From the NCBI GenBank assembly GCA_963752285.1, contig CAVVXN010000005.1:1664001-1728000 (forward strand): a stretch of DNA of 64,000 nt, written 5' to 3'. The DNA comes from an uncultured Planctomycetota bacterium. GTDB lineage: Bacteria > Planctomycetota > PLA2 > JAEUHO01. How positions within the stretch are numbered: the first letter of the stretch is position 1; the number at the start of each line of letters is the position of its first letter. Below the pieces are notes generated by a model. The model made no database searches, was not told where the DNA came from, and saw nothing but the letters and a program-made list of their open reading frames with translations. Below are positions 6,431 through 45,073 of the stretch, in pieces. The position numbers and the translations under genes are program-made.

Positions 6431-6907
6431 GGAACCTTCCAGGGTAGTGTTGCCGCCCTCCCGGGCCAGCGGGGGAACGAGCGACGCGCGCGCGTCGGCG
6501 CGGGTCTCGGCCTCTGGCTCCGTCCCGACCGGCCTCGCGGGCGAGGCCCTCCTGTGTCGCGCCCCGTGTGCTCGTCCTCTCCGCGTACGCGGCGCACCGG
6601 CCCGCGCCGACCCCGAGCTCGCCGCTCGAGGTGGCCCAGAGCCCGAGGCGGACCGGACCACCCCCCGCGCGCCCGGGGGCCCTGAACGTACCGGCGGACG
6701 GGGGCCGGCCCGTCGGTGGAGTTCATCCCCGACCCCGGCCGTCGCGCACGGGCGAGGCGCCCCCGCCCACCGGCGGGAGGCGAGTCTTTGCCGCGGAGGG
6801 GCCGGGGCGGGTTTGCGTCCCGTTCTCAGCATCGCTACCGGGACCCTCGGCCTCCCCCTAGCATCCCCCCCCGGTTCGATCCCATCGATCCCAGGCAGGA
6901 GCATCCC

Positions 6908-7114
6908 GTGAAGAAGGCTTTCCTGGTTCTCGGTCTCATCGCAGCGGCGGGACTCGCCGGAGCGTGCCATCACTACAGCTACGCGGGCACGCCGGGCGCC
7001 ACGACGTACGCGCAGCCCGCCCCGACGGGCCCGATGCCGGCGCCGATGACCGCGCCCCCGATGTCCGCCCCCGCGGCGGGCACGGGCTGCGGCGGCCCGC
7101 ACGGTTGCGGCTAA
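6908..7114 (+). CDS. Small Pro-rich lipoprotein (68 aa) with C-terminal GCGGPHGCG
   Basis: AGGAG SD then GTG; KK + hydrophobic stretch + lipobox LAGA-C; ends in TAA. Confidence 0.7.
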   Translation: MKKAFLVLGLIAAAGLAGACHHYSYAGTPGATTYAQPAPTGPMPAPMTAPPMSAPAAGTGCGGPHGCG

Positions 7115-7329
7115 ACCCCGCTCGCGCGAACGTCTCCGGTCGTCTCGACCGGCCTGACCCCGCTTGACCGCCGCGCCCCCGTCGGCGCGGGTCGGTTCTG
7201 GTCGTCTGCTCTTCGACAAGGGGGAGCAGACGACCTCGTTCCAGGTGGCGCCGGCCGCGCACGCCCTCTGACGCGACCTGCCTGCGCCCGATTCCGGGCC
7301 CCGTGCGCGCATGGCGCCGGGAGGACCAC

Positions 7330-7791
7330 GTGAGCGGCGAACGCCCCGGGACGCCGGACGAGAGTCGGGAGCGCCTCGTCGCCCGACTCGGAGACGAGGA
7401 CCCCGGCCAGCGGACCGCCGCCGCGAAGGCGCTCGGCCGACTCGGGCCCACGGCGCGCGAATTCGCGCCGGAGCTCCTACCGGTCCTCGGGGACGAGGAC
7501 CCGATGGTTCGGGCGATGGCCGCCGCGGCGCTCGGGAAGATCGGCGCCGACGAGGACCGGGTCGTGCAGGCGCTCGGCCTCCTCCTCGACGACGCGGTGG
7601 TGCCGGTTCGCTTCTGGGCGGCCGACGCGCTCGGACGGCTCGGTGCCTCGGCGGGCCCGCTCCTGGCACGACTCGACCGGCTGGCGGCGAGCGGTCCGCC
7701 TCCGGTCTCGAACGCGGCCCGACTCGCCGCCAGCCGCATTCGATCGGCAAGGGCGGGCGAGGATCAGGGGTCGGACGCGATCGGGCGGTAG
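7330..7791 (+). CDS. HEAT-repeat protein
   Basis: Three repeats of the type LGDEDPxVRxxAAxALGxLG; GGAGG SD before GTG. Confidence 0.8.
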   Translation: MSGERPGTPDESRERLVARLGDEDPGQRTAAAKALGRLGPTAREFAPELLPVLGDEDPMVRAMAAAALGKIGADEDRVVQALGLLLDDAVVPVRFWAADALGRLGASAGPLLARLDRLAASGPPPVSNAARLAASRIRSARAGEDQGSDAIGR

Positions 7792-7802
7792 AATCCCGCG
7801 CG

Positions 7803-8030
7803 ATGCCGAGTCCGCATTCCCTCCGCCGCCTCGCCAACCTCTCGAAGAAGGTCCACGACGACCTCCGGCGCGGCGGGATGGCGATGACGTTCAAGTACCT
7901 CTTCCGCTCCACCGCGATCTTGGCCCGGGTGACGGCGATCCTCGCCGACTACGTGGCGACCGAGGCGGGCGCCCCCGCCCAGGAAGGCGAAGAGCCGCCC
8001 GGGAAGCGGGGCCTTCGCACCGGCCGCTAG
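7803..8030 (+). CDS. Small hypothetical protein (75 aa)
   Basis: ATG just after the HEAT gene; normal amino-acid composition (MPSPHSLRRLANLSKKVHDDLRRGG...) and GC3-biased codons. Confidence 0.6.
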   Translation: MPSPHSLRRLANLSKKVHDDLRRGGMAMTFKYLFRSTAILARVTAILADYVATEAGAPAQEGEEPPGKRGLRTGR

Positions 8031-8053: not shown

Positions 8054-9208
8054 TCAGCGCGCGGCGCGCCGCGGCGGTGCGGTCGGGGGCGCGGCGCCTT
8101 CGCGGGCTTCGGCGGAGAGGAGCTCCAACGCGCGCCTGTTCGCGCGGGGGAACGCGTAGCCGTCCAGGTCCGAGAGGCGGACGAAACGCGGCGACTCGCA
8201 CGCGAGCGGGCGCGGACGACCGCGGGCGCACGAGCAGTGGAAGAGGTGGAGCGTGATCTTCATGTGCGTGTAGGCGTGGTCGATCGCCACGAACCGGCGA
8301 CCGACCGCGACCTCGAGACCGGTCTCCTCGCGGACCTCGCGCGCGCAGGCCTCCTCGAGCGTCTCCCCCCGCTCCCGCTTCCCGCCGGGGAACTCCCAGA
8401 GCCCGCCGAGGAGACCTTCGCGGGGCCGGCGCGCGACGAGGAGCCGGTCGCCCCGCCACACGAGACCCGCCGCGATGTCGTGGTGCGGGACCGGCTTCCT
8501 CGCGGGCCTGTGGGGCAGCGCGGCTGCCCGGCCGCGAGCTCGGGCGCGGCACACGTCCGCGAGGGGACACACGTCGCAGCGCGGCGCCCTCGGCACGCAG
8601 ACCGTTGCGCCGAGGTCCATCACGGCCTGGTTCCAGTCGCCCGGCCGGGACGCGGGGAGGAAGGCATCCGCCGCGCGGCGCACGCGTTCTCTCGCCGCGG
8701 ATCGGGTCACGTCGCCGCCCTCGTCGAGGAGTCGCGCCACGACGCGGACCACGTTCCCGTCCACGACGGCCGCCGGGCACCCGAACGCGATGCTCGCCAC
8801 CGCGGCGGCCGTGTACGGCCCGAAACCCGGAAGGGCCACGAGGGCCTCGACCTCGCGCGGGAGGGTCGCCCCGTACCGCGCCACGAGCACCCGGGCCGCG
8901 CGGTAGAGGGACCGCGCCCTCGCGTAGTAGCCGAGCCCCTCCCACGCCTTCAGGACCTGGTCCTCGCGGGCGCCCGCGAGGGACCGGACGTCGGGGAACT
9001 GCGCGAGGAACCGCGGCCAGCGGTCGAGGACCGTGGCCACGCGCGTCTGCTGGAGCATGGTCTCCGAGACCCAGATCTCGTAGGGGTCCCGGGTGCGGCG
9101 CCACGGGAGGTCCCGCGCCGCGCGGTCGTAGTGGGCGAGGAGACGGCGACGGACGCGCCGCACGAAGGACGCGTCCGGGCCCGACGACCCGGTGTCGCGG
9201 GCCCGCAC
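8054..9208 (-). CDS. mutY: A/G-specific adenine glycosylase MutY with C-terminal NUDIX domain (start uncertain; 9265 possible)
   Basis: RDLPWR, IWVSETMLQQT, WEGLGYYARAR, HhH LPGFGPYTA, VDGNVVRV, Fe-S motif CVPRAPRCDVCPLADVC. Confidence 0.95.
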   Translation of the reverse strand: MRARDTGSSGPDASFVRRVRRRLLAHYDRAARDLPWRRTRDPYEIWVSETMLQQTRVATVLDRWPRFLAQFPDVRSLAGAREDQVLKAWEGLGYYARARSLYRAARVLVARYGATLPREVEALVALPGFGPYTAAAVASIAFGCPAAVVDGNVVRVVARLLDEGGDVTRSAARERVRRAADAFLPASRPGDWNQAVMDLGATVCVPRAPRCDVCPLADVCRARARGRAAALPHRPARKPVPHHDIAAGLVWRGDRLLVARRPREGLLGGLWEFPGGKRERGETLEEACAREVREETGLEVAVGRRFVAIDHAYTHMKITLHLFHCSCARGRPRPLACESPRFVRLSDLDGYAFPRANRRALELLSAEAREGAAPPTAPPRRAAR

Positions 9209-9263
9209 GCGGGAAGGGCCGTCTCGGCGTCCGCCTCTGGCGGACGCCCGGGAACGATCGGTC

Positions 9264-9297
9264 ACGGGTCGCGCCGACGGCGCGACTAGGGAGCCGC
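9264..9297 (-). promoter_or_regulatory. Candidate bacterial SECIS element directly 3' of an in-frame UGA
   Basis: mRNA after UGA reads GCGG-CUCCCUA-GUCGCGCC-GUC-GGCGCGAC-CCGU: 8-bp upper stem after an 11-nt spacer, loop starting GU, possible lower stem GCGG/CCGU. Confidence 0.6.
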
Positions 9298-9819
9298 TCA
9301 GGTCCCGCCGACGCAGGGCTCGGGCGCGGCTCTCGGCGCGCCCGCCCCGGCGAAGAGGCCCTTCATCGACCCGCGCGACGCCGCGGGGCGCGGCGTGGCG
9401 ACGGCCTCGCGCGGCGGCATGACCGGCGCGGCGACGGCGGGCTGAACCCGCGCGGTGCGGCTGACCGGCACCACCGGCGTCGGCCCGGCCAGGTCGCGGC
9501 GTACCAGCGGGACCGCGCGATGCCCGCGCATCAGCTCCATCGAGGGCGGCGCCGGCGTCGGGGGCCGCGCGGTGGTCGTCGCGACCACGCGCGGCTCGAT
9601 CACGACCGGCCGCGCCACGGGTCCGGCATGCACCGGTCCGGAGATCACGGGGCTCGGGCTCACGGGCCTCGAGCTCACGGTGCGGCGGATCACGCGCGGC
9701 GGCGGCAGCGCGGCCCGGGAGGCCACGCTCGTCCGACGCTGCGACAGCCCGCCCGAGGCACAGCCGCCGAGGACCACGACGGCCCCCAGCGCGAACGCCA
9801 CGGTTCTCGGCATCCTCAT
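9286..9819 (-). CDS. Pro/Arg-rich lipoprotein, paralog 1; putative selenoprotein ending EPCVGGT-U-AAP (TGA 9298-9300 recoded, TAG stop 9286-9288)
   Basis: GGAGG SD; lipobox-like VLGG-C; TGA aligns with the Cys of both paralogs; ATG at 9813 is an alternative start. Confidence 0.7.
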
Positions 9820-10104: not shown

Positions 10105-10665
10105 TCAGGGGACCAGACACCGGCCGCCGGCACACGGGTCGGCCGCACAGGGGGAAGGCGCGGCCACCGGGGACGCCCGCGGCGACTCGAAGAGGCCGCG
10201 CAACTCCGAGAGCGAGCTCGTCCTCGCCGCGCCGAGCGACCTCGGGGCCCGGGGCGCGGGAGCGGCCCGAGCCGGAAGCGGCGAGGCGACGGAGAGCCGG
10301 AGCGGCGCGGGACGGCTGACGGGGACGACCGGCGTCGGGCTCGAGAGGGCCCGCCGCGCGATGGACGACGTGCCCGGTCTCGCGAGGATCTCCATCGACG
10401 CGGGCCGCGGCGGCCCCGGCGCGCGGACCACCGCCGGCTCGGGCGCTGCCAGGCGCCTTGTCTCGACGACGCGCGGCGCGACGAAGGCCGGCGTGACGGT
10501 CCGGGCCGCGGCGACGGAACGGACCGGGAGGCGATAGGACGCGCTCCGCACGACCGGAGGCGGGAGGGACGCGCGTGAACGCGGCACCCGGACGGGGGCG
10601 CCGGGGGCCGCGCAGGCACCCAGGAGCAAGAGCCCCCCCATCCCGAACGCCAGGATCTTCGACAT
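10105..10665 (-). CDS. Pro/Arg-rich lipoprotein, paralog 2, ending PCAADPCAGGRCLVP
   Basis: GGAGG SD; lipobox LLGA-C; shares RAxLPPP, SME, PTPVVPVSR and GLF blocks with paralog 1. Confidence 0.75.
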   Translation of the reverse strand: MSKILAFGMGGLLLLGACAAPGAPVRVPRSRASLPPPVVRSASYRLPVRSVAAARTVTPAFVAPRVVETRRLAAPEPAVVRAPGPPRPASMEILARPGTSSIARRALSSPTPVVPVSRPAPLRLSVASPLPARAAPAPRAPRSLGAARTSSLSELRGLFESPRASPVAAPSPCAADPCAGGRCLVP

Positions 10666-11323
10666 CGTCGTCCTCCCTGTCGCGACGAGGGACGAGGGGG
10701 TCACGCGCGCCGGCCGGCGCCGGCGGACCCTCTCGTCTTGCCTCCCGTGGACCCGGGACTCCACGCGCTCGCGGAGCCCGCATCGCGGAGGGATCGCTCG
10801 TTCGGGCCCGGACCAAGGACCACGAAGACCGTCTCACCGGCGTCGGGCGCGGCCCCTCGGGGGTGCCGCGTCGGCGCGCCCCCACGGGCGACCAACCGCC
10901 CGCCCGTACGGGCGACCGGTCGATGGGCGCGCGCGAGTCGCGCGCCCGCCGTACGACGACGCATCGGTGTTCGGATGGCCCTGCTTCCCAACGAGCCCGG
11001 GAGGACGAGCACGCCTCGCCCACCACGAATCCCTACCCTGTCGGGCGACCACTCTAGCGGGTCCCTGGGCGCCCCCCAAGAGAGGATTCCTCGCCGCGCG
11101 TTCGGGCCCCCGTCGGACGTGCAGGGCGCGCCGATGGCTCTCCAGGCCCTGAAAACAGGGCGGGAAGGCGCCGGACCGAGCGGGCAAGGGAAAGGGGCCG
11201 CGGGATCTAAGTCCCATGGCGCCCACAGACCCGGGGCTCTCTACGGGGCCCGGAACGGGCCACGACGGGCGTACGAGCTGCCGGCCGGGCGGGGGCGAGC
11301 GGGGCTCGGGTCGAAACGGGCCC

Positions 11324-11698
11324 TCAGGGGACCCGGCAACGGCCGCCGGCGCAGGGGTCGCAGCCGTCGTCGGCCGTCTTCGGGCACGGGCGGAACAGGG
11401 TCCCGAGGCTCCCCGAGTGGACGGTCGCCGAGCGGCGGGCGGCCTGGGCCTCGGACGCGTCGGCCCCCGCACGCACGGCACGACGCGACACGAGCGTCGC
11501 GGCGGACGCCGGCTGCGCCTTCGACGCCGCGGTCGCCGCCACGTGCACGACGGCCGTGGTCGTGGTCGGCCGGGCGTCGCTCACGCGCGGCGCCTCGGGG
11601 CTGGTCACACCGGCGAGCACGCGCTCCCTCGCCAGCGGTCGCGACGCACACGCGGCGAAGAGAAGCGCGACGAGGGGAAGGAACATCGAGGTCTTCAT
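11324..11698 (-). CDS. Ala/Arg-rich lipoprotein, paralog 3, ending CPKTADDGCDPCAGGRCRVP
   Basis: GGAGG SD; lipobox LFAA-C; same C-terminal motif and xxLF block as its neighbours. Confidence 0.75.
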   Translation of the reverse strand: MKTSMFLPLVALLFAACASRPLARERVLAGVTSPEAPRVSDARPTTTTAVVHVAATAASKAQPASAATLVSRRAVRAGADASEAQAARRSATVHSGSLGTLFRPCPKTADDGCDPCAGGRCRVP

Positions 11699-11926
11699 CG
11701 TCTCCTCCGGTCCCGGGGGGCCTCCACCCGGGGCGAGCGCGGGCATGCGCACCCGCTCTTCCGTATTCATGGCCCGCGAAAGCGCGTGTGGCATGGCTTT
11801 CGTGGGCGTCCTGAATGCAGAGGGAACGTGTAAGGAGAAACCTCTTCACGCGCCCCGAGCGCGGTCTTCATGGACCCTGGTACCGTCTCCGCGGACCCGG
11901 CGGTCGGGACCAGCGCGAGGAACGAG

Positions 11927-13393
11927 ATGCCCCGTAGGAACAGGCCGGGACCGGGTGGCGATGCCGCGGCGTCGCGCGCGTCGCGCCCCGTGGCCGGAGC
12001 GGCGCTGCTGGGGCTCCTCGCCGCGTTCCTCGGCGCGTCGGGGCTCGAGGCGGGCGAGTCGGACGGCGTCCGGTGGGAGCCGGACCTCGAGGCGGGGCTG
12101 CTCCGCGCCGCGAAGGAGGGCCGCCCCGTCCTCCTCGCCGTGAACGCGATCGAGACGGAGGCCGCCAACCAGCGTCTGGCGGGCGAGATCTACCCGTCGG
12201 CGGCGTGGGGCGACGCCACGCGCGACTGGGTCGCGTTCGTCGGGAACCCGAACGCGCACGGCGGCGCGGCGTGCTCGCGATACGGCGGCATCCCGTGCGC
12301 GACGCACCAGGCGGTGCTCCGCTACGTCGTGCGGCGCTTCGCGCCCGGCGGCGACCTGATCAGCCCGCAGCACCTCGTCCTCGACCCCGACGGGCGCCTC
12401 GCGTTCCGCAAGGAGTACTTCACGGGCGTGGTGGGCCCGGACTTCTTCGACCGGTGGCTCGCACGGCTCTGCCCCACCATCACGCTCGACCGGGCGGCGC
12501 GCCGGCGCCCCGACACGATCGACGCCCTCGGCGCCGCGCCCGTGGAGAAGGTGACGGACACGGCGCGGGCGTGGCTACGGAGCGGCGACCCTCTCGCGCC
12601 CGCCGGCGTGCTCGACGCGATGGACTACGCCATGGAGGAGCCGCGACGGGTCGCGCTCGCCCTGTCGTTCGACGCGACGCCGAAGGAGCTCCTCGCCGTG
12701 CCGTGGACGGCGGCGTACGACGCCGCCGTCGCGCCCGACGACGCGCCCGAACGGACGCTCGCGTTCGTGACCGCGTTCCTGCTCGCCGATCCGGGCACGG
12801 GCGCCGACCTCGCGGCGCGCGCCGCCGTGCTCACCCGGGACGCCTCCCTGTCGAGCCGGGTCCTCGCCGCGTGGGTCGGCGGGCCGGTACCGGCCTCCGG
12901 CGTCGTGCCGGGCCTGGACGACCGGGCGGCGGCCCGCCTCGCGGAAGTCCTGGCGCTCCTCGGTCGGCCGGACGGCGGGCGGGCGCCGGAGAGGCTCCCG
13001 CCGCCTCTCGCCGCGCGCCTCCAGCGCGCCCGGGAGAAGGCGGGGCGCGCCGCGACGCCCGCGCCGCCGCTCGCGCAGGTCCTCGCCGCGGACCCCGCGC
13101 CGGGCGCGCTCCGCCGGGCGGTCCTCGCCGCCGCGCCGGACGCGGTCCTCGCGTCCGAGGCCGAGGTCCGCGCGCTCCTCGACCGTCCGGAGGAGCGCGT
13201 GCGCGTGGCCGCCGCGCTCGCGCTCCTCTCGACACGGCGCCGGCTCGACGCCGCGGCCGAGGCCGTGCTCCTCGCCGCGGTCTTCGACCCCGTCGAGGGG
13301 CCCGACACGCGCGAGCTCGCCGCGCTGCGTCTCGGGACCGACCCGGGCCGCGACGAGGAGACATGGCGACGCGCGTTCGAGGCCCGCAGGTGA
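11927..13393 (+). CDS. Exported protein with N-terminal thioredoxin-like domain (no CXXC) and helical-repeat C-terminus
   Basis: Signal-like hydrophobic stretch; VRWEPDLEAGLLRAAKEGRPVLL and PQHLVLDPDG typical of thioredoxin-fold N-terminus and cis-Pro strand; HEAT-like LLDRPEERVRVAAALAL. Confidence 0.65.
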   Translation: MPRRNRPGPGGDAAASRASRPVAGAALLGLLAAFLGASGLEAGESDGVRWEPDLEAGLLRAAKEGRPVLLAVNAIETEAANQRLAGEIYPSAAWGDATRDWVAFVGNPNAHGGAACSRYGGIPCATHQAVLRYVVRRFAPGGDLISPQHLVLDPDGRLAFRKEYFTGVVGPDFFDRWLARLCPTITLDRAARRRPDTIDALGAAPVEKVTDTARAWLRSGDPLAPAGVLDAMDYAMEEPRRVALALSFDATPKELLAVPWTAAYDAAVAPDDAPERTLAFVTAFLLADPGTGADLAARAAVLTRDASLSSRVLAAWVGGPVPASGVVPGLDDRAAARLAEVLALLGRPDGGRAPERLPPPLAARLQRAREKAGRAATPAPPLAQVLAADPAPGALRRAVLAAAPDAVLASEAEVRALLDRPEERVRVAAALALLSTRRRLDAAAEAVLLAAVFDPVEGPDTRELAALRLGTDPGRDEETWRRAFEARR

Positions 13394-16837: not shown

Positions 16838-18703
16838 TCAGTGCCCTGGATCGACCGGGTCCAGGTCCGCTTCGACGTCGATCTCGTCGCTCCCGCGGCG
16901 GACCCTGAGCTTCAGGTGCTCTCCCTCCCAACGCCCGGTCAGCAGCTCCGCACCCGAGCGGGCGTCGGTGATCGGCCTTCCGTCCACGCCGACGATCACG
17001 TCCTGTGCACGAAGGCCCGCGTGCTCCGCCGCCGAGCCCGGCGTGACCTCGTCGATGGCGGGCGGCCCGTCGCCGGCCGCGAGGCGGATGCCGAGGCGCC
17101 CGCGCCGGAGCGAACGTCCCGCCTCGAGGCGCGGGAGGGCCGCCACGACGCTCGGCCAGGGAACGACGAAGCCGATCCCGGAGTTGCGCCCCTGTCGAAG
17201 CGGCATCCAGAGCTGGAGTACGCCGAGGACACGGCCCCGCACGTCCACGAGCGCGCCGCCGACGTTCGCGTCGGTCACCCCGGCGTCCGTCTGCCACTGG
17301 CCCCGCCACGCGCTCGGCACGTCGTCCGCGTGGACCTTCGAGAGGACGCCGAACGTGAGCAGCGGGTCGGGGAGACGGTCTTTTCCGAACGGATTTCCGA
17401 GCGCGAGCACGAAACGGCCGGGCTGGAAGGCGTCGGCGGGCGCGACGTCGGGGACGGAGAGACCGGGCGCGGTCCGCCCGCCGTCGTCCTTCCCGGCGAG
17501 GTCGGCCTGGAGGAGCGCGATCCCGAGGCGTCCGTCGTGCGCGACGAGCTTCGCTGGCACGTCGAGGCCCCCGCCGAGGTGCGCCGTCACCTTCGTGACG
17601 GCCCGCAGCCCCGACTCGACCTGCATCTCGGGCGGGAGCTCGGCGCCGGGCAGCACGAGTTCCGTCACGTTCGTCAGGTTGTAGAGGCTCGTGACGATGA
17701 ACCCGTCGCCGCTCACGAGCACGCCGCTCACGGGACCCTGCCAGCGGGCCGTGTCGGCGAGGCTCCGGTCGCCGGGGCTCTTCGTCGAGAGCGGCGTCGC
17801 GCGCGTGACCTCGAGGCTCACGACCCACGGATAGGCCTTCGCGGCCGCGCTCCGGAGCACGCGCTCGAGCTTGGCCGCGCCCGTCGCGCGCGCGGGCGTA
17901 GCCGCGACGGCCGTGAACGCGATCTTCGTCTCGGGCAGGTCCGAGTAGATCGCGCGGATGCGGTCGATGGGCAGGACCTTGCCCAGGAACTGGTACGGCT
18001 CGGTGGGCGTCGGCAGCATCCACGTGGAGACCGTCCCCACGAGTCGGCCCTCCACGTCCACCACCGGGCCGCCGTTGACGCCCGGGTTCACGGCCGCGCT
18101 CGTGTACACGTACTCGAGGCGGCCGCCGCCGTCGCCCGGCGGGAGGTACGTCAGGGCCGAGACGATGCCCGCGGTCAGCGCGGGCGGGGTCTCCTCGGAC
18201 AGACCGAACGCGTTCCCCGTAACGAAGAGGAAGTCGCCGACCTTCAGGTGGTCGCTCCCCGCCGGCGGCAGCGCGAACGGGAACCCCCCGGGCGGCGGCT
18301 GGGTGACACGGAGGAGGCAGGTGTCCGAGCCCCGCTCGCGCCGCACGACGACCGCGGGGTACGAGCTGAACCCGCCCTTCTCCAGATCGGGCACGCGGAT
18401 CTCGACGTCCTCCGACAGGTGGTCGAGCCCGCGGCCCTTGGGCCCGAGCACCGCGCCGACGTCGCCGTCGGAGAGCACGAGCCCGGAACGGGAGACGATC
18501 ACCCCCGACGACGAGGAGGCGCGTTCACTCTCGACCCCGCGCGGGACGCAGATCACCGTGGCGGGCGTGACCTTCCCGATGGCTTCGCGGAACTCGCGCT
18601 CGACGTCGTCGAGGCTCCCCTTCGCGAAACCCCTCGCGGGAGCGAGGAGCACCACCGCGAGCACGGGCGTCCAGCGGAGGAGGGAGAGCCGGGGGCGGGT
18701 CAT
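16838..18703 (-). CDS. Exported double trypsin-like (S1C) pseudoprotease + PDZ (copy 2)
   Basis: Two S1C folds without the catalytic triad (LSDGD and NPGVNGG; TSLYN and TDANVGG); C-terminal PDZ (GRLGIRL...GSAAEHAGL); ATGA overlap with the upstream protease gene. Confidence 0.85.
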   Translation of the reverse strand: MTRPRLSLLRWTPVLAVVLLAPARGFAKGSLDDVEREFREAIGKVTPATVICVPRGVESERASSSSGVIVSRSGLVLSDGDVGAVLGPKGRGLDHLSEDVEIRVPDLEKGGFSSYPAVVVRRERGSDTCLLRVTQPPPGGFPFALPPAGSDHLKVGDFLFVTGNAFGLSEETPPALTAGIVSALTYLPPGDGGGRLEYVYTSAAVNPGVNGGPVVDVEGRLVGTVSTWMLPTPTEPYQFLGKVLPIDRIRAIYSDLPETKIAFTAVAATPARATGAAKLERVLRSAAAKAYPWVVSLEVTRATPLSTKSPGDRSLADTARWQGPVSGVLVSGDGFIVTSLYNLTNVTELVLPGAELPPEMQVESGLRAVTKVTAHLGGGLDVPAKLVAHDGRLGIALLQADLAGKDDGGRTAPGLSVPDVAPADAFQPGRFVLALGNPFGKDRLPDPLLTFGVLSKVHADDVPSAWRGQWQTDAGVTDANVGGALVDVRGRVLGVLQLWMPLRQGRNSGIGFVVPWPSVVAALPRLEAGRSLRRGRLGIRLAAGDGPPAIDEVTPGSAAEHAGLRAQDVIVGVDGRPITDARSGAELLTGRWEGEHLKLRVRRGSDEIDVEADLDPVDPGH

Positions 18704-19836
18704 CGGCGCGGGATCAGGCCCTTCGGAGCCGCCGGGAGACGACCGCTCCACTCGTAGGAGAGCCTGCCGCGCCGGAACTTGATGCGGAGGAACGTGCCCT
18801 CGCGACAGAGCGAGAGGAGGTTCGTCACGTCGGACGCGGTGCGGATCCGGTGGTCCTCGCCGAACCCCCAGATCGAGACGATCACGTCGCCGACCCGCAG
18901 CGGCCTCTTCGACTTCGGGCCCGCGGGACCGTCCGGTGCGACCGCGGCGACCGCGGCACCCTCGGGGCTCCCGTGCTCGCCGACGGAGGTCTGGAGCTCG
19001 AGACCGAGGTACCCGGCGCTGGCGTCCGTCCGGCTCTCGATCAGGGCCATCAGGAACGCGTTGACCTGATGGATGGGGATCGAGAAGGACGCGCCCGTGT
19101 TCGTGTGCCCCGCGCCCGGCTGCGAGGGCCGCGTCGCGATCATGCCGTTGATGCCGAGGAGGTCGCCCTTGCGGTTCCAGAGCGGACCGCCCGAGTTGCC
19201 GGGGTTCACCTCGGCGTCGTGCTGCAGCGCGTTGCCGTAGAGGAACTCGCCGCCGAGGATCCGGTCGCGCCCCGACAGCACGCCGAGCGTAACGACCGGA
19301 TGGCCGTCGAGGGCGAGGCCGAACGGGTTGCCGGTCGCGAGGACCCAGGCGCCCTCCTCGACGACCTTGCTCGCGCGCACGCGGTTCGGGTTCAGGGTGA
19401 AGGCGTCCAGGTCCTTCGGCCGGCGCGGGAACGCGAGGAGCGCGATGTCGTACTGCGGGATCGTGTCGTGGACCTCGACGGCGCGCTCCTGGCCGTCCGA
19501 GGTCGAGATCGTGACCACGTCCGCGCCGGCGACGACGTGCACGTTCGTGATCACCCAGAGACGGCTCGCCCGCTCCACGATCACGCCCGACCCGAACGCG
19601 TAGGGCCGCACCTGGGCGCCGTCGACCGGCTTCCCGTCGCGACCGCGCGGATAGCGCTTGTTCCACACCGCCACCGTCATCTTCCGGACGGTGGCCGCGG
19701 TGTCCACGAGCTCCTGCTCCATGTCGAGCACGTCGGAGAGGTCCGACGAGAGGCCCCGGTCGGAGTCGTCGTCCGCGCGCGCCGGACCGAGCAGGGTCAG
19801 CGCGAGGACTCCGGCCAGCAGAACGCGTGTGCGCAC
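18700..19836 (-). CDS. HtrA/DegP-like serine protease with PDZ (copy 2)
   Basis: Signal peptide; intact triad TNVHVV, YDIAL, NPGNSGGPL; PDZ (GYLGLEL...GDVIV). Confidence 0.92.
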   Translation of the reverse strand: MRTRVLLAGVLALTLLGPARADDDSDRGLSSDLSDVLDMEQELVDTAATVRKMTVAVWNKRYPRGRDGKPVDGAQVRPYAFGSGVIVERASRLWVITNVHVVAGADVVTISTSDGQERAVEVHDTIPQYDIALLAFPRRPKDLDAFTLNPNRVRASKVVEEGAWVLATGNPFGLALDGHPVVTLGVLSGRDRILGGEFLYGNALQHDAEVNPGNSGGPLWNRKGDLLGINGMIATRPSQPGAGHTNTGASFSIPIHQVNAFLMALIESRTDASAGYLGLELQTSVGEHGSPEGAAVAAVAPDGPAGPKSKRPLRVGDVIVSIWGFGEDHRIRTASDVTNLLSLCREGTFLRIKFRRGRLSYEWSGRLPAAPKGLIPRR

Positions 19837-19893
19837 GAGGAAAGGCTATCGCGCGAAACAGGATCCCGCGTGATCGCTTCCGGCGTCCCCGTC

Positions 19894-21807
19894 TCAGGGG
19901 CGCTGGCCGAGGGTCACCGGGACCGTCAGGAGCGCGCCCCGGCGTCGGACGGTCATCTCGACCGTCTCGCCGGCGTATCGGAAGGCGACCGCGTCCACCG
20001 CGTCTTCGACCGTGGCGACCTCGTCGTCGTCCACGCGGTACACGACGTCCCCCGCGGCGAGGCCCGCGCGGTCCGCGGCGGACGCCGGAACGACGGTCTC
20101 GATCGTCGGCACGTCGCCCGAGGCGAATCGGACGCCGAGGAAGCCGTGCGCGGGCACGCGGCCCCGGCGGATGTCGGCGGCGGACGCGATCAGCCTCTCC
20201 GCGGGCACGACGAACGCGACCCCGCTGCTCCGGCCGTGCCGCCCCGGGTGCCAGAGCTGGAGCATGCCGACGAGGCCCCCGTCGATGTCCACGACCGCGC
20301 CGCCGCAGTTCGAGTCGATGCCCGACGCGTCCGTCTGCCACTCGCCGCGCCAGGCCACCGCGCCGTCGTCGGGGTGCTTCTTCGAGAGGATGCCGAACGA
20401 CACGAGGGGCAGGGGTCGGCGCTCGGGCCCGAACGGGTCGCCGACCGCCACGACGAAGCGTCCGGGCGCCAGCGCGGCCGTGGGCGCGGCCGGGACCACG
20501 TGCGCCCCCGACCGCCGCGCCACGTCCTCTTCCACCTCCAGGAGCGCGACGCCGGTCCGGTCGTCGTGCCCGACGAGGCGCGCCGGACCGTGCGCGCCCG
20601 AGGGGAACCACGCCTCGACGTCGAGCACGTCGTCGAGCCCGTCGGCGACGCTCGCGCCCTCCGGCGGTCGCCAGAGCGGGTACACGAGCTCGGCCACGTC
20701 CGTCAGGTCGTAGAGGCTCGTTGCGATGCCGCCTTGCTCGTCCACGAGGAGGCCGCTCACGGGGCCCCGCCAGCGAGGCAGCGCCTCGCCGGGGGGCAGC
20801 GCGGGCGTGCGCCCCGAGATGGGCCGCCGACGACGGACGACGAGGCTCACGACGCCGGCCCGTGCGGCGCGCGCGGCGACCCCGACGGCGTGCTCGAGCG
20901 CTCGCGCGGTCTCCCCCGCCGGCTCGGGGCTCGCCGGCGCGAGCGCGCGCGACTCCGCTCCCCCGACGGCGGCGCGGATCCGGTCGATGGGGACGACGCG
21001 CCCGAGGAGCTGCTGCGGCTGGTCGGGGCCGGGGTCCACCCAGCTCGAGACGGTGCCCACGAGCTGGCCGTCGAGCGACACGACACCGCCGCCGTTCATG
21101 CCCTGGTTCAACGCGGCGGTCGTGTAGAGGAGGGTCCATGGGCCGACGGGCGCGCCCTTCGGCGCGGGATCGGCCGACGCGACGAGACCCGCGGTGACCG
21201 TCGGGGGCGTTGACCCCACGTCGTCGAACGCGACGCCCGCCGCGATGACGAACCGCCCGGGCTCCAGCTCGGCGCTCCGTCCGACGGGGACGAAGGGGAA
21301 CCCACCCGCGGGGGGCCCGAGCACGCGCACGAGCGCCGTGTCGGCCTCGACGCTCCGCGCGACCACGCGCGCGGGCCACGCGCGGTACCCCCCGTTCCCG
21401 TCCGCCCTTCGGACCTCGACGTCGTCGAGGCGCACCTTCTCGACGCCGTCCCCCGCGCGCCGCCACATCACGCCCGCGTCCCCGTCGGTCAGGACGAGAC
21501 CCTCCGCGGAGACGAGCACGCCCGACGAGAAGCCCCCCTCCGCGCGCGACACGCCGCGCGGCACGACCACCACGGTGGCGCGCCGCGCGCGGTCCGCGAC
21601 AAAGCGGAACGAGTCCTCCACGCGGGAGAGCGCGTCGCTCGCGGGCGCGCGCCCCGCCAGCGCGAGGACGGCGAGAACGGCGAGGGCGCCGAGGCCGAGG
21701 CGGGAGGCCCGGGCCGTCAGCCCGCGAAGCGCCGGCGCCCCCGGCGTCGAGCCGCCGGGGCGGGGCGGCGCGCCGGCCGAGCGCGCGAGGACCGGGAGCG
21801 TCCTCAC
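19894..21807 (-). CDS. Exported double trypsin-like (S1C) pseudoprotease + PDZ (copy 1)
   Basis: Two S1C folds with LTDGD and NQGMNGG; TSLYD and IDSNCGG; PDZ (GFLGVRF...AADRAGL); clear paralog of 16838-18703. Confidence 0.85.
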   Translation of the reverse strand: MRTLPVLARSAGAPPRPGGSTPGAPALRGLTARASRLGLGALAVLAVLALAGRAPASDALSRVEDSFRFVADRARRATVVVVPRGVSRAEGGFSSGVLVSAEGLVLTDGDAGVMWRRAGDGVEKVRLDDVEVRRADGNGGYRAWPARVVARSVEADTALVRVLGPPAGGFPFVPVGRSAELEPGRFVIAAGVAFDDVGSTPPTVTAGLVASADPAPKGAPVGPWTLLYTTAALNQGMNGGGVVSLDGQLVGTVSSWVDPGPDQPQQLLGRVVPIDRIRAAVGGAESRALAPASPEPAGETARALEHAVGVAARAARAGVVSLVVRRRRPISGRTPALPPGEALPRWRGPVSGLLVDEQGGIATSLYDLTDVAELVYPLWRPPEGASVADGLDDVLDVEAWFPSGAHGPARLVGHDDRTGVALLEVEEDVARRSGAHVVPAAPTAALAPGRFVVAVGDPFGPERRPLPLVSFGILSKKHPDDGAVAWRGEWQTDASGIDSNCGGAVVDIDGGLVGMLQLWHPGRHGRSSGVAFVVPAERLIASAADIRRGRVPAHGFLGVRFASGDVPTIETVVPASAADRAGLAAGDVVYRVDDDEVATVEDAVDAVAFRYAGETVEMTVRRRGALLTVPVTLGQRP

Positions 21808-21811
21808 GGCG

Positions 21812-22951
21812 TCAGCGAACGCCCAGACGGCCGGTCCACCGAAGCGTCTGACCGCTCCTCACGAAGCGGAGGGTGACCGTCGTGCCGGGCACGAGGCCGC
21901 GGAGCACGCTGTGCACGTCCTGCGCCGAGCGGATGCGCCACGCGCGGCCTCCCGTGGCGAACCCCGTGATGACGTCGCCCGGGAGGAGCGCGCCGTCGCC
22001 CGACGAGGGCCGGCCGGGCGACGGCCCGAGGACGCTCGTCACGCGGGCCCCGAGCGGCTCCCCGCGTCCGTCCGTCTCGGTCGTGTACCGGATCCCGAGC
22101 AGGCTCGTCGGCCGAACGACCGGCGGCGGGAGCGAGGCCACCACGTCCGGCCTCGGCTCGACCGGACGCGAGGGCTCGGTCACCGACGCGAGGAAGCGCT
22201 GGATCCGCTCCATCGGCACCGCGAACGAGGCGCCGGTGTAGGCGGGGCCCGCGCCCTGCGCGCGGGAACGCGTCGCGATCGTGCCGTTCAAGCCGAGCAG
22301 CTCGCCCCGCGCGGACCAGAGCGGCCCGCCGCTGCTGCCCGGGTTGATCTCGGCGTCGTGCTGCAGCGTCGGCGCGTCCACGTACGTCGTCTCGTCGGGC
22401 GGCCGGAGCCCCGAGACGACGCCGAGCGTCGCGACGGCGCGGCCGTCGAGAGCGAGGAAGAACGGGTTGCCCGTCGCGAGCACCCACGAGCCGTCGTCCG
22501 GGCGAGGCGTCCGCCGCCCCTCGAGCGGCACCGACCGGAGCGAGTCGGGGGCCGTGCGGAAGGAGAGGAGCGCGAGGTCGCCCTGGCGGTCCCGCGCGCG
22601 CACCTGGACGGGGAAGTGCCGGCCGTCCGCGGTCACGACCTCGAACGTCGCGTCGGAGTCCACCACGTGGAGGTTCGTGAGCACGAAGAGCCCGCGGTAG
22701 CGGACGAGGACCCCCGACCCGACGGCCTGGAGGGGCAGCGGTCGTCCCCCCGGGCCGCCCGCGGCCGTCGCGGGCGTCTTCGCGAGCACGCTCACGGTCG
22801 CGCCGCGCACCAGCTCGACGGTGCGGACGATCCTGCGCTCGAGCTCGTGCACCTCCGCGCGCTCGGCCGTGGTCAACTCGTCGGCCCGGAGCCGCGCGGG
22901 GAGGAGGACGGCCGCGGCCAGGGTCGCGGCCAGGATCCCGAGGCGGGGCAT
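21812..22951 (-). CDS. HtrA/DegP-like serine protease with PDZ (copy 1)
   Basis: Signal peptide; triad TNLHVV, GDLAL, NPGSSGGPL; PDZ; paralog of 18700-19836 (shared WVLATGNPF and LQHDAExNPG). Confidence 0.92.
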   Translation of the reverse strand: MPRLGILAATLAAAVLLPARLRADELTTAERAEVHELERRIVRTVELVRGATVSVLAKTPATAAGGPGGRPLPLQAVGSGVLVRYRGLFVLTNLHVVDSDATFEVVTADGRHFPVQVRARDRQGDLALLSFRTAPDSLRSVPLEGRRTPRPDDGSWVLATGNPFFLALDGRAVATLGVVSGLRPPDETTYVDAPTLQHDAEINPGSSGGPLWSARGELLGLNGTIATRSRAQGAGPAYTGASFAVPMERIQRFLASVTEPSRPVEPRPDVVASLPPPVVRPTSLLGIRYTTETDGRGEPLGARVTSVLGPSPGRPSSGDGALLPGDVITGFATGGRAWRIRSAQDVHSVLRGLVPGTTVTLRFVRSGQTLRWTGRLGVR

Positions 22952-23061
22952 GGCGCGAGAGTAGGGATCGGGAGAGGCCCGGTCAACGCGCCGTGTCGCG
23001 ACCCTCCGGGCACCCCCCGGCGCAGGCGGTCGGGACCGGCCCGCGCGGTGGGGTCCCGGGC

Positions 23062-23089
23062 TTGACGCCGCCGGGGCGTCTCCTAACAT
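23062..23089 (+). promoter_or_regulatory. Sigma70-type promoter for the tRNA pair
   Basis: TTGACG-16 nt-TAACAT followed by a GC-rich discriminator, upstream of the tRNAs. Confidence 0.65.
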
Positions 23090-23222
23090 CGCCGATTCCC
23101 CGCCGCCCGCATCCCGCGGGGCCGGCGGGCGTTCTTTCGGAGCTCGACCCCGCGCGACGTGCCTTCGCGGCCGCCCGAGCCGGGCGTTCGCGGGGCCCGT
23201 CGGCGCCGCGCGACGTTCGCGT

Positions 23223-23298
23223 TGAGGAGTAGTTCAGCTGGTAGAACGCCTGACTCTGGATCAGGAAGTCGGAGGTTCGAGTCCTCCCTCCTCAGCCA
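23223..23298 (+). tRNA. tRNA-Gln (anticodon CTG)
   Basis: Acceptor TGAGGAG/CTCCTCA, anticodon arm CCTGA-CTCTGGA-TCAGG, T-loop GTTCGAG, encoded CCA. Confidence 0.97.
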
Positions 23299-23345
23299 CC
23301 CTCGCCGCTCGGCCCGCGCATCGTCGGTCTCTCGCCCGCCACCCC

Positions 23346-23421
23346 GGCCCCATCGTCTAGCGGTCTAGGACACGGCCCTCTCAAGGCTGAAACGGGGGTT
23401 CGAGTCCCCCTGGGGTCACCA
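23346..23421 (+). tRNA. tRNA-Glu (anticodon CTC)
   Basis: Acceptor GGCCCCA/TGGGGTC, anticodon arm CGGCC-CTCTCAA-GGCTG, T-loop GTTCGAG, encoded CCA. Confidence 0.97.
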
Positions 23422-27000: not shown

Positions 27001-27402
27001 GCGAGCGGGCCGGGCGACCGCGAGGCCGCAAGGCCCCGAGGAAAGTCCGGGCTCCACAGGGCGAGGTGGTGGGTAACGCCCACCGGGCGCGAGCCCGGGG
27101 AAAGGCAACAGAGAGCAGACCGCCGATGGCCCCGAGGCGCCCCCGTGGCGCCCGCGGGGATCAGGCAAGGGTGAAACGGTGGGGTAAGAGCCCACCGCGG
27201 CGGCGGCGACGCCGTCGGCGAGGCACGCCTCACCCGGAGAAAGGCCAAATAGAGGAGGAGCGGGTCGGCGGCGACCCCACGGTGCGGCCCGCACCGTCCA
27301 ACTCCCGGGTAGGCCGTTCGAGACCGCCGGCGACGGCGGTCCCAGATCGATGGTCGCCCCGGTCTTCGGACCGGACAGGACCCGGCTTACAGGCCCGCTC
27401 GC
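27001..27402 (+). ncRNA. rnpB: RNase P RNA, bacterial type A
   Basis: GAGGAAAGTCCGGGCTCC, GGGTGAAACGGTGGGGTAAGAGCCCACC, 3' ACCCGGCTTAC; P1 GCGAGCGGGCC pairs with GGCCCGCTCGC. Confidence 0.96.
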
Positions 27403-27431
27403 GCGTCTTCGCCCCCGGTCGGGCCGAACCC

Positions 27432-41505: not shown

Positions 41506-42942
41506 TCACATCGTCCTGAGCGACGAGAGCAGACGCTCGATCGACGTGCCGGCCTCGCCCCACGCGCTGTCGGGGCACGCCGCGAGGAGCACCACGCGGC
41601 CCTCGCCGCGGTCCACCACCACCGCGACGGTGCGCACCTTCTCGCCGTGGAGGGTGCCGCGGAGCACCATCTTCCAGCCCACCGGGAGCCCCTCCCCGAG
41701 GTCGGCGCGGGCCGAGAGCACCTCGAGATCGGGACAGACGAGCCGAAGCCGCGAGAGGAGGCGGGCCTCCGCCTCGTCGGCGCCGGGCGCCGCGCGCGCG
41801 CCCGACGGGTCCCACTCGACGCGCACGTCGGCCACGAAGAACCGGCTCTCGAGCGACGCGACGCGACGCGAGCCCGTCTGGCCGGGGACGCCCTCGACCC
41901 GCTGGACCTTCCAGGTGTCGCCCGGGAGGCGGAGCGTCAGACCGATCTCGGGGATCCGCACGAGGTCCGCGCCGCCCGCCTGCTCGTCGCGGCGCGCCTC
42001 CTCCGACGCCGCCTTCGCCTGCGCCGCCGTGGCGGGCACGGCCACGACGCCCTCGGTGATCCACTCCTCGAGCACCTCGGCCTCGCGGAACCGCGAGACG
42101 AGCCGGACGCCGTCCTCCTCCCACACGAACTCGTCCCAGGCGTCGCCGTCGGGGCCCTTCACGCCGAGCGACGAGAACCCCGCGCGCGCGGTGGCGAGCC
42201 GGGCGTGCTCCTCGTCCACGAACGCGACGTCCCGGACGCCCGCCTCGCGGGAGCGGAGGAGGTGCTCGCGCGTCCCGAGCCGACCGCGGACGCCGGACGG
42301 CACGTCGAGCTTCTTCTGGGTGCCCTGGTCGCCGTCGCGGACGAGCACGGTCCAGACCGCGTCCTTCACCGGCCCCGTCGCGACGCGCTCGTACCGGGGC
42401 GGGCCGTCGGTGCCGGGCGCCGCCTCGTCCACCTCGCGGAACCGGAGCGCGCGCGGGAAGAACGCGAGGTCCACGTCCTCCGACCGGAGTCGCCGGATCT
42501 CGGGGACGTGGGGCCCGCGACCGAACGTCACGACCTCCTCCTCGAGGTGCCACCCGGGCTGGCCCTCGCCGAGGACCCGTCGGAGCACGAGGTGGCGCGT
42601 GCCCACCGTGCGCCCGTCGGAGCGGAGCAGGTACCACGCGTCGCGCACCGTCTCGGGGGAGGGCGGGGGGCCGCACTCCGAGCCGCGCACGACCTCGGTG
42701 ATCATGTCGCGCGGGAGGCGCATGCGGCCCTCGCCGCCGGTCTCGGACGGGAGCGCGAGGACGATCGCGTCGTGGCCCTCCTCGACGATGCGCCCCTCGA
42801 ACACGCTCCCGTTCCTCAGCGTGACGCGGTCGAGCCGGGCGGGCGCGTCGTCCCCCGCGCGCACCGCTCCCACGAACGCGAGCACGCCGACGAGACCGAC
42901 GGCGAGGAGGAGGAGCAGACGGAGCGGCCCGATCCGGCCCAT
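41506..42942 (-). CDS. Exported hypothetical protein
   Basis: Signal peptide; N-terminal DRVTLRNGSVFEGRI motif; coding-like codon bias; PsbP-like character at the C-terminus. Confidence 0.7.
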   Translation of the reverse strand: MGRIGPLRLLLLLAVGLVGVLAFVGAVRAGDDAPARLDRVTLRNGSVFEGRIVEEGHDAIVLALPSETGGEGRMRLPRDMITEVVRGSECGPPPSPETVRDAWYLLRSDGRTVGTRHLVLRRVLGEGQPGWHLEEEVVTFGRGPHVPEIRRLRSEDVDLAFFPRALRFREVDEAAPGTDGPPRYERVATGPVKDAVWTVLVRDGDQGTQKKLDVPSGVRGRLGTREHLLRSREAGVRDVAFVDEEHARLATARAGFSSLGVKGPDGDAWDEFVWEEDGVRLVSRFREAEVLEEWITEGVVAVPATAAQAKAASEEARRDEQAGGADLVRIPEIGLTLRLPGDTWKVQRVEGVPGQTGSRRVASLESRFFVADVRVEWDPSGARAAPGADEAEARLLSRLRLVCPDLEVLSARADLGEGLPVGWKMVLRGTLHGEKVRTVAVVVDRGEGRVVLLAACPDSAWGEAGTSIERLLSSLRTM

Positions 42943-43034
42943 CCGGAAGATCCTACCCTCAGCCTGCACAGCCCACGCACTGTCGTGAATCGCACGGCCC
43001 CGCGGCCGCCCGGCCGGGCGCGGCGAGGACGCGT

Positions 43035-44969: not shown

Positions 44970-45073
44970 GGTCGGAGGGGGTGGGTAGCCTTCCCGGGTT
45001 CGAGCGGGGCCATGCTACCCACGGTCCTCGTCGATCGACGTCGGCGGCGCGCGATTCGCGTCGAGGAGGGTCC

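Follow-up and report, generated by a model that had tools for sequence, protein, structure and literature searches.

A lipoprotein gene with an in-frame TGA

We analysed a 64,000-nucleotide stretch of DNA from an uncultured Planctomycetota bacterium (positions 1,664,001 to 1,728,000 of contig CAVVXN010000005.1, assembly GCA_963752285.1; hereafter the window, with positions counted from its first letter), which has a G+C content of 74% and carries three related lipoprotein genes, all on the minus strand. One of the three contains an in-frame TGA that we propose to be a selenocysteine (Sec, U) codon, and is called the Sec-type gene below; the other two have a cysteine codon at the same place and are called Cys-type.

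Read with TGA as Sec, the Sec-type gene spans 9286..9819 (minus strand), from an ATG at 9819, just 5' of which lies a GGAGG-rich stretch, to a TAG stop at 9286-9288. Its 177-residue product (MRMPRT...EPCVGGT-U-AAP) starts with MRMPRTVAFALGAVVVLGGCASGG, and the MR(M/I) N-terminus is common to other Sec-type members of the family. The 3' end reads GAG CCC TGC GTC GGC GGG ACC TGA GCG GCT CCC TAG, with the proposed Sec codon (residue 174) at 9298..9300, the three codons for Ala-Ala-Pro at 9289..9297 and then the stop, all on the minus strand. An earlier note on this DNA, made from the letters alone, had described the gene as apparently stopping at this TGA after EPCVGGT and, if read through, as continuing with U-A-A-P to a TAG; both the coordinates and the sequence are correct. 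It had also expected gene callers to shorten the protein, and this is what they do: gene calling ends the window protein at the TGA (a form of 171-173 residues, P0006), as do all public calls for the Sec-type members seen here.

The two Cys-type paralogs lie in tandem upstream of the Sec-type gene. Paralog 2 (P0004, 186 aa; 10105..10665, minus strand) is 44% identical to the Sec-type protein and ends DPCAGGR-C-LVP, with TGT (10117-10119) as its Cys codon; paralog 3 (P0003, 124 aa; 11324..11698, minus strand) is 39% identical and ends DPCAGGR-C-RVP, with TGC (11336-11338) in that position. Both terminate at a TGA. These paralog ends are as the earlier note gave them, and its central observation, that the Sec-type TGA sits exactly on the conserved Cys, also stands: a MAFFT alignment of the three proteins puts the TGA in the column where both paralogs have the invariant Cys, with the terminal Pro shared, and so do larger family alignments, where 8 further Cys-type homologs carry Cys in the same column.

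A reassigned genetic code was considered and ruled out. Among 29 window open reading frames (ORFs), 24 end in TGA and five in TAG; with TGA serving elsewhere as a stop in this genome, a reassigned code is excluded. A search of the window for other Sec genes with an internal TGA, made as a search for codon-biased ORF pairs joined by TGA, gave only two matches, both of them adjacent genes. The prevalence of TGA as a stop speaks for an alternative, namely that the TGA at 9298-9300 is a true stop, that proteins ending CxGG[T/G] form a subfamily 4-5 residues shorter and without the second Cys, and that the hairpin found just downstream is an mRNA-stability, terminator or other 3' element. In its favour, TGA is the commonest stop codon in the window and the public gene calls (P0006, P0007, P0010-P0014 and P0016) end there. 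We nevertheless regard a true stop as improbable, given what it leaves unexplained in the family and in the related loci.

Family members and orthologous loci

An exhaustive HMMER search with a profile of the three paralogs against 1.84 billion protein representatives returned 12 proteins at E<=1e-3, and a profile search of a 5.8-billion-cluster set returned 14, seven of them new; a word-indexed homolog search with P0004 found the query itself as its sole match. The two profile searches combined gave 19 family members, and 18 were aligned after P0022, a fragment that diverges before the C-terminus, had been dropped. Eight members are Sec-type (P0006, P0007, P0010-P0014 and P0016): as called, they end C-[AVP]-G-G-[T or G], with T in seven and G in one, and terminate exactly one residue before the Cys column in 8/8. 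The remaining ten are Cys-type, ending C-A-G-G-R-C-x-V-P, some with one extra residue (D, R or K), and the Cys is present in 10/10. The ORF of one Cys-type member, P0021, continues for ~80 residues past ...CAVP, which may mean that a stop codon was lost, that two genes were fused or that the assembly is wrong here.

The residue that precedes the site covaries with it, being Thr (7) or Gly (1) before Sec in 8/8 and Arg before Cys in 10/10 (residue 173 of the window protein, codon 9301-9303); Thr precedes Cys in no Cys-type member, and Arg stands at the end of no shortened member. Five to six tree lineages are represented among the eight Sec-type clusters. As judged from these sequences, eight clusters stopping one residue short of an invariant Cys bear the classic mark of a TGA read as Sec, and a true stop does not explain why all eight should end exactly at a column that is otherwise invariant.

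We scanned the species genomes of GTDB with an alignment of six Sec-type sequences, which yielded 158 pattern matches and three confirmed relatives, L001, L002 and L003, all in metagenome-assembled genomes (MAGs) of Planctomycetota. L001 reads ...ECAGGT TGA ATG CCG CCG CAG TAG (tail MPPQ), L002 reads ...NCPGGT TGA ACG CCT CCG TAG (tail TPP), and L003 reads ...PCAGGT TGA AGC CCC TGG TAG (tail SPW). Together with the window, 4/4 loci thus have ACC before the TGA, a tail of 3-4 codons that includes a Pro, and a TAG stop, the stop used by Sec-type genes in 4/4 cases. The tail nucleotides diverge between the loci, with the TGA and the TAG kept. If translation ended at the TGA, an in-frame TAG 3-4 codons further on in 4/4 loci, despite the divergence of the nucleotides in between, would have no explanation, nor would the retention of a Pro in the tail, as in the Cys-type tails.

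The window and the three MAG loci have a common gene order: malic enzyme, a TPR-like gene, a gene that in the window encodes 507 residues, the lipoprotein, mutY, a HEAT-repeat gene and marR. Identities of the neighbours are 78% for malic enzyme (maeB), 45-52% for the 507-aa protein, 66-80% for MutY and 71-76% for MarR; the lipoprotein itself is 36-44% identical across the loci (tblastn). By gene order and sequence identity, the four loci are orthologous, and the source organism of the window would belong to the same clade of Planctomycetota as the MAGs. The mutY gene of L001 alone is inverted (6633..7910), running convergently to the lipoprotein gene; the window locus, L002 and L003 all have it downstream on the same strand.

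These loci bear directly on the suspicion that the TGA arose through faulty sequencing or assembly, or through a recent nonsense mutation that is turning one of three paralogs into a pseudogene. Two intact Cys paralogs could indeed make a third copy dispensable. Against this, the same TGA is found in 3/3 independently assembled orthologous loci, and four further Sec-type clusters from metagenomes (P0010, P0012, P0013 and P0016), known from protein only, end at the same residue. The orthologs for which DNA is available keep TGA rather than TGC or TGT (3/3), and all representatives ending CxGG[T/G] (8/8) stop there, which excludes both a read error and a nonsense mutation private to this genome. 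Moreover, tblastn queries with the Cys paralogs gave no separate match in the DNA examined from L001-L003, in which the Sec-type gene is the sole family copy detected, and therefore no decaying spare. We accordingly assign error or pseudogenisation a negligible probability.

The hairpin beyond the TGA and the proposed decoding of UGA-174

A hairpin that resembles a bacterial Sec insertion sequence (SECIS) lies at 9268..9286 (minus strand), with a perfect 8-bp stem (5' arm 9286-9279, 3' arm 9275-9268) and a 3-nt loop, GTC (9278-9276). It begins 11 nt after the TGA, with the final G of the TAG stop. If the U of UGA is taken as nucleotide 1, the stem occupies nucleotides 15-22 and 26-33, and the G and U of the loop are nucleotides 23-24. 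The earlier note had reported just such a stem, spacer and loop starting GU at this position, and we find the same. Its further claim that no equivalent stem follows the Cys codons of the paralogs stood in part. Paralog 3 does have a 7-bp stem there (11316..11338, minus strand), directly after the Cys codon and enclosing the TGA stop; its spacing and sequence are unlike those of the conserved element, and at the paralogs' 3' ends a covariance model of the latter, with its TGA and spacer, lists nothing up to an E of 10.

The hairpin is found at the same place in 4/4 loci, with a stem of 7-8 bp and a loop of GTC, GTT or CGTG. It starts from the G of TAG in L001, directly 3' of TAG in L002 and 3 nt past TAG in L003, so that the spacer between TGA and stem, 11 nt in the window, is 12, 14 or 15 nt in the orthologs and the GU is shifted by 1-3 nt. 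The apex is CGCC-GT(C or T)-GGCG and its five inner pairs are invariant, with one loop base short in L001. The three outer pairs change on both sides and are still paired (G-C to A-T; T-A to A-T or G-C; G-C to A-T or G-T), giving 3/8 pairs with compensatory change, and 96.9% of cells in the alignment are paired, as opposed to 21.9-59.4% when the partners are slid. Beyond the 3' side of the hairpin, the four sequences cease to align.

Some 15-25 nt further downstream, every locus carries another, longer hairpin (10-15 bp), terminator-like and unrelated in sequence between the loci; in the window it is a 10-bp hairpin at 9226..9248 (minus strand). The presence of this separate, variable structure argues that the first hairpin is not simply the terminator. 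Seen across the four loci, the first hairpin is kept for its sequence and position and not merely as a terminator. This bears out the expectation of the earlier note that the hairpin would be conserved and not only a terminator, and it is a further difficulty for a true stop, which would not account for an invariant apex where another hairpin already supplies a terminator-like structure. In L002 the hairpin is followed by TTTT, a point in favour of a true stop. Nor does the hairpin appear to be a leader of mutY: it stays at the 3' end of the lipoprotein gene despite the inversion of mutY in L001, and is therefore part of the lipoprotein gene. In the window the longest mutY ORF opens with a GTG at 9265, immediately past the conserved hairpin, so that its first part (9206..9265, minus strand) would take in the terminator-like hairpin (9226-9248). 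Compared with L003, however, mutY more likely starts at the GTG near 9208.

A covariance model built from the TGA, the spacer and the hairpin scores its four training sites at 57.6-62.6 bits, by construction; the next full-length match in 91,725 bases reaches 12.3 bits (E 0.22), and no further copy was found. Searched with Rfam at the gathering threshold, the window has no match near the TGA and hairpin. On L002, Rfam at E<=10 gives two weak sub-threshold matches, none of them to a SECIS family; one of these, to rsmX, overlaps the hairpin on the opposite strand at 17.9 bits, compared with a gathering score of 56. Rfam is not known to include a general bacterial SECIS model.

The window also encodes the factor expected to bind such an element. 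As the earlier note had pointed out, selB, the gene for the Sec-specific elongation factor, lies in the same window (43035..44969, minus strand; 644 aa), and it is intact, with an EF-Tu GTPase domain, a SelB beta-barrel and a C-terminal SECIS-binding winged helix (Pfam GTP_EFTU 1.1e-36, Beta-barrel_SelB 2.5e-11 and SelB-wing_3 6.5e-16). Judging by these domains, its product would be the trans-acting factor expected to bind the hairpin. The selB region (41506..45014, minus strand) has no selA or selC adjoining; downstream lies a gene (41506..43035) whose product lacks annotation and looks exported, and after it comes a Ser/Thr kinase gene. Some Planctomycetes are known to have the Sec trait (PMC4807772).

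The element that invites comparison is the SECIS of E. coli fdhF, whose upper stem-loop (nucleotides 15-31) lies 11 nt from the UGA, with a bulged U17 and with G23 and U24 in the loop, U17 and G23 contacting SelB (PMC8659212). The hairpin described here likewise lies directly 3' of the UGA, at 11 nt in the window and 12-15 nt in the orthologs, and in the window its loop GU occupies the same positions, 23-24. Given this geometry, standard SelB- and SECIS-dependent insertion is the most likely route by which the TGA would be read. The pairing of a TGA with Cys in homologs is the standard signature of Sec genes (PMC13188914, PMC1088965), and in the terms of these same papers the window gene has its TGA aligned with Cys in at least two homologs and, just 3' of the TGA, a stem-loop with a small apical loop containing G.

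We thus envisage that the TGA, ordinarily a stop, is read as Sec at position 174 when the small hairpin 11 nt downstream recruits SelB with its Sec-tRNA(Sec). The ribosome would then add Ala-Ala-Pro and stop at a UAG whose last base opens the hairpin. The resulting product would be a protein with signal peptide and lipobox, a disordered tether and a C-x-G-G-x-U-x-x-P end.

Read-through of the TGA without Sec, by suppression with a near-cognate tRNA (Trp or Cys) or by Cys carried on tRNA-Sec, with the hairpin as stimulator, would predict the same conserved tail and hairpin, and it agrees with the lack of any selA, selD or tRNA-Sec within the window. It fits poorly with the presence of an intact selB, with the geometry of a SelB element (a stem 11-15 nt after the UGA and GU in the loop; compare PMC8659212) and with the alignment of TGA and Cys that typifies Sec genes (PMC13188914, PMC1088965). 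We consider it quite improbable. A true stop, for its part, would leave the retention of an intact selB in the genome unexplained.

Several observations weigh against decoding as Sec, or limit how far the evidence for it reaches. Neither tRNA-Sec nor selA nor selD was found within the 64-kb window by ARAGORN, Rfam or Pfam. In this DNA the hairpin is not rare: perfect 8-bp stems with loops of 3-8 nt number 47 in the window, where 20 first-order Markov simulations gave 39.4 on average; the folding energy of the 71-nt region is no better than that of shuffles (z = +0.44) and is unremarkable in the window, a point in favour of a true stop; and the apex motif CGCCGTNGGCG is seen 3 times, where 3.0 are expected. 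With stems and apex motif at chance frequency in DNA of 74% G+C, we dropped rarity as a line of evidence, and the hairpin therefore gains significance only through its conservation in other genomes. There, the counts of covariation are small because only four DNA sequences, all from one clade, are available. In L001, moreover, the hairpin is down to 7 pairs, one of them G-U, and is a loop base short, and minimum-energy folding favours a different pairing. In the maximum-likelihood tree a single branch, weakly supported (71/83), splits the Sec and Cys types. Set beside the fdhF element as described in PMC8659212, the window hairpin has a loop of 3 nt (4 nt in L001) where that of E. coli is larger; none of the four hairpins has a bulged U, the stem being a perfect 7-8 bp; and the candidate element lies outside the coding sequence, overlapping the TAG in the window and L001 or following it by 0-3 nt in L002 and L003. 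Finally, the protein has no recognisable fold; the Sec would therefore lie outside any known redox domain, and its function is a guess.

Weighing these points against the Sec/Cys alignment, the TGA, tail, TAG and hairpin kept in four genomes, and the intact selB, which together support the interpretation of the earlier note, we judge it very likely that UGA-174 of the gene at 9286..9819 (minus strand) is decoded as Sec. The gene probably represents a new selenoprotein family, in which the established bacterial recoding mechanism works with a minimal element that lies past the coding sequence.

Protein features, possible function and comparison with known systems

All 18 aligned members begin with a basic and hydrophobic signal peptide that ends in a lipobox. 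Motif inspection places the lipobox Cys of the window Sec-type protein at Cys20 of L-G-G-C-A (codon 9760..9762, minus strand), where lipidation is predicted once the 19 residues of the signal peptide are removed. The lipobox is L-[GTAC]-[GA]-C-A in 17/18 members (F-A-A-C in P0003); Cys20 and Ala21 are invariant in 18/18, and Leu17 nearly so. From these motifs we infer that the product is exported and lipid-anchored. The other conserved elements are PPSMEL, RVVPVSRxARVQPAVAAP, L-F and the terminal C-x-G-G-x-[C or U]-x-x-P. AlphaFold2, given the 18-sequence alignment, returned a pLDDT of 58.8 and a pTM of 0.14, with helices only at residues 5-18 (the signal peptide) and a short one at SMEL; the mature protein is thus probably a disordered tether, rich in Pro, Arg and Val.

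No Pfam or NCBIfam model describes the family, which the earlier note had not recognised either. Pfam at 1e-5 assigns the three window paralogs to 0 families, and P0001 and P0015 have none at E<=5. The best NCBIfam matches of seven proteins (the family members P0001, P0003, P0004, P0007, P0008 and P0015 and the unrelated P0005) reach 8.4-16.4 bits, against cut-offs of 50-650. None of the 119 prokaryotic selenoprotein families in a 2026 table (PMC13188914) fits, as judged by family name and Sec motif. In the ESM Atlas, the best score for P0004 is 0.85, to unnamed and uninformative clusters.

Many members have 2-4 extra Cys in their last 35 residues; the window Sec-type protein has only Cys169 and Sec174. 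It is conceivable, and to us somewhat doubtful, that this C-x4-U pair makes the tip of a flexible arm redox-active (as a selenenylsulfide) or able to bind soft metals. The exchange of Arg before Cys for Thr or Gly before Sec may mean that a thiol needs activation and a selenol does not. The 507-aa protein encoded divergently from the lipoprotein cluster (11870..13393, plus strand; 3908-5599 in L001 and 3988-5532 in L003, both on the minus strand), which is conserved at 45-52% identity, has no Pfam or PDB match; its look-alikes in the ESM Atlas are HEAT and thioredoxin-HEAT proteins of Planctomycetota (scores 0.90-0.95). It is a possible functional partner, which we offer as a lead only. A broader picture, put forward tentatively and with less confidence than the decoding itself, is that of an uncatalogued Planctomycetota family of disordered, lipid-anchored envelope selenoproteins, in which a tether of ~150 residues would have the C-terminal C-x-G-G-x-Sec-x-x-P as its sole universal chemistry. 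Such a "fishing-line" selenol might pass electrons to a partner, for which the 507-aa neighbour is one candidate, or catch soft metals or metalloids for it; its bulge-less SECIS would lie wholly outside the coding sequence and overlap a conserved UAG, and Sec and Cys paralogs might be switched by selenium supply.

Elsewhere in the window, a small ORF at 6716..7114 (plus strand) has a lipoprotein-like signal (..LAGAC..), is rich in Pro and Ala and ends GCGGPHGCG; its stop is TAA, used by none of the 29 other window ORFs checked. It has no tblastn match in L001-L003 and no Pfam match, and its appearance is that of another Cys-tailed lipoprotein, from a separate family. Three consecutive genes for trypsin-like (HtrA/DegP-type) proteases, two with PDZ domains, lie at 18700..23233 (minus strand). 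ARAGORN finds only tRNA-Gln(CTG) and tRNA-Glu(CTC), in tandem at 23223..23421 (plus strand), and Rfam finds those two and a bacterial class A RNase P RNA (27002..27405, plus strand; 219.9 bits).

If the Sec reading is true, it would add a selenoprotein family that neither Pfam nor NCBIfam nor, by name and Sec motif, the 119-family table recognises, and it would correct a systematic mis-annotation, the public Sec-type gene calls seen here all being cut at the TGA. The family would be unusual in having no predicted fold, with Sec among the last few residues of a disordered lipoprotein. A small, bulge-less hairpin at or after the real stop would offer a compact case for minimal SelB recruitment outside Proteobacteria and Firmicutes, and one Sec and two Cys copies in tandem, with a covarying preceding residue, a natural experiment on Sec-versus-Cys chemistry.

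Placement of Sec in a C-terminal tail has a eukaryotic parallel. Mammalian thioredoxin reductase ends in Gly-Cys-Sec-Gly, thought to be a mobile redox arm, and its SECIS lies in the 3' untranslated region, far from the UGA. There, as proposed here, a Cys/Sec pair stands at the end of a flexible C-terminal extension, a functional analogy only: the enzyme is eukaryotic, its Cys and Sec are adjacent (C-x4-U here), and it is a folded flavoenzyme, in contrast to a disordered lipoprotein.

In prokaryotes, Sec near the C-terminus is known from the UXX-star 1 and 2, KCU-star and SaoC families (Table 1 of PMC13188914). These resemble the family described here in that Sec lies a few residues from the stop and in the reasoning behind their prediction, which starts from proteins cut short near the C-terminus by a TGA that aligns with Cys; if their names describe the gene ends, their Sec-directing element would also sit at or beyond the stop. 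They differ in that there is no sequence relationship, C-x-G-G-x-U-x-x-P here being carried by a disordered Planctomycetota lipoprotein, and the models NF041114, NF041211, NF033934 and NF040734 have no match at E<=1 among seven proteins, six of them family members. A lipid-anchored selenoprotein likewise has precedent, since the Rcas_1661 family of thioredoxin-like (seleno)lipoproteins (NF041057) is, judging from the name of the model, a lipoprotein family with Sec members. Its match to the present family is only 12.8 bits against a cut-off of 190 (P0003 residues 8-81, near the N-terminus), and it has a thioredoxin-like fold with a UxxC motif (PMC13188914), in place of the disorder predicted here; most selenoproteins are in thioredoxin-like folds (same source). 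The recoding mechanism itself is textbook, and the gene described here would extend a known kind without adding a new one.

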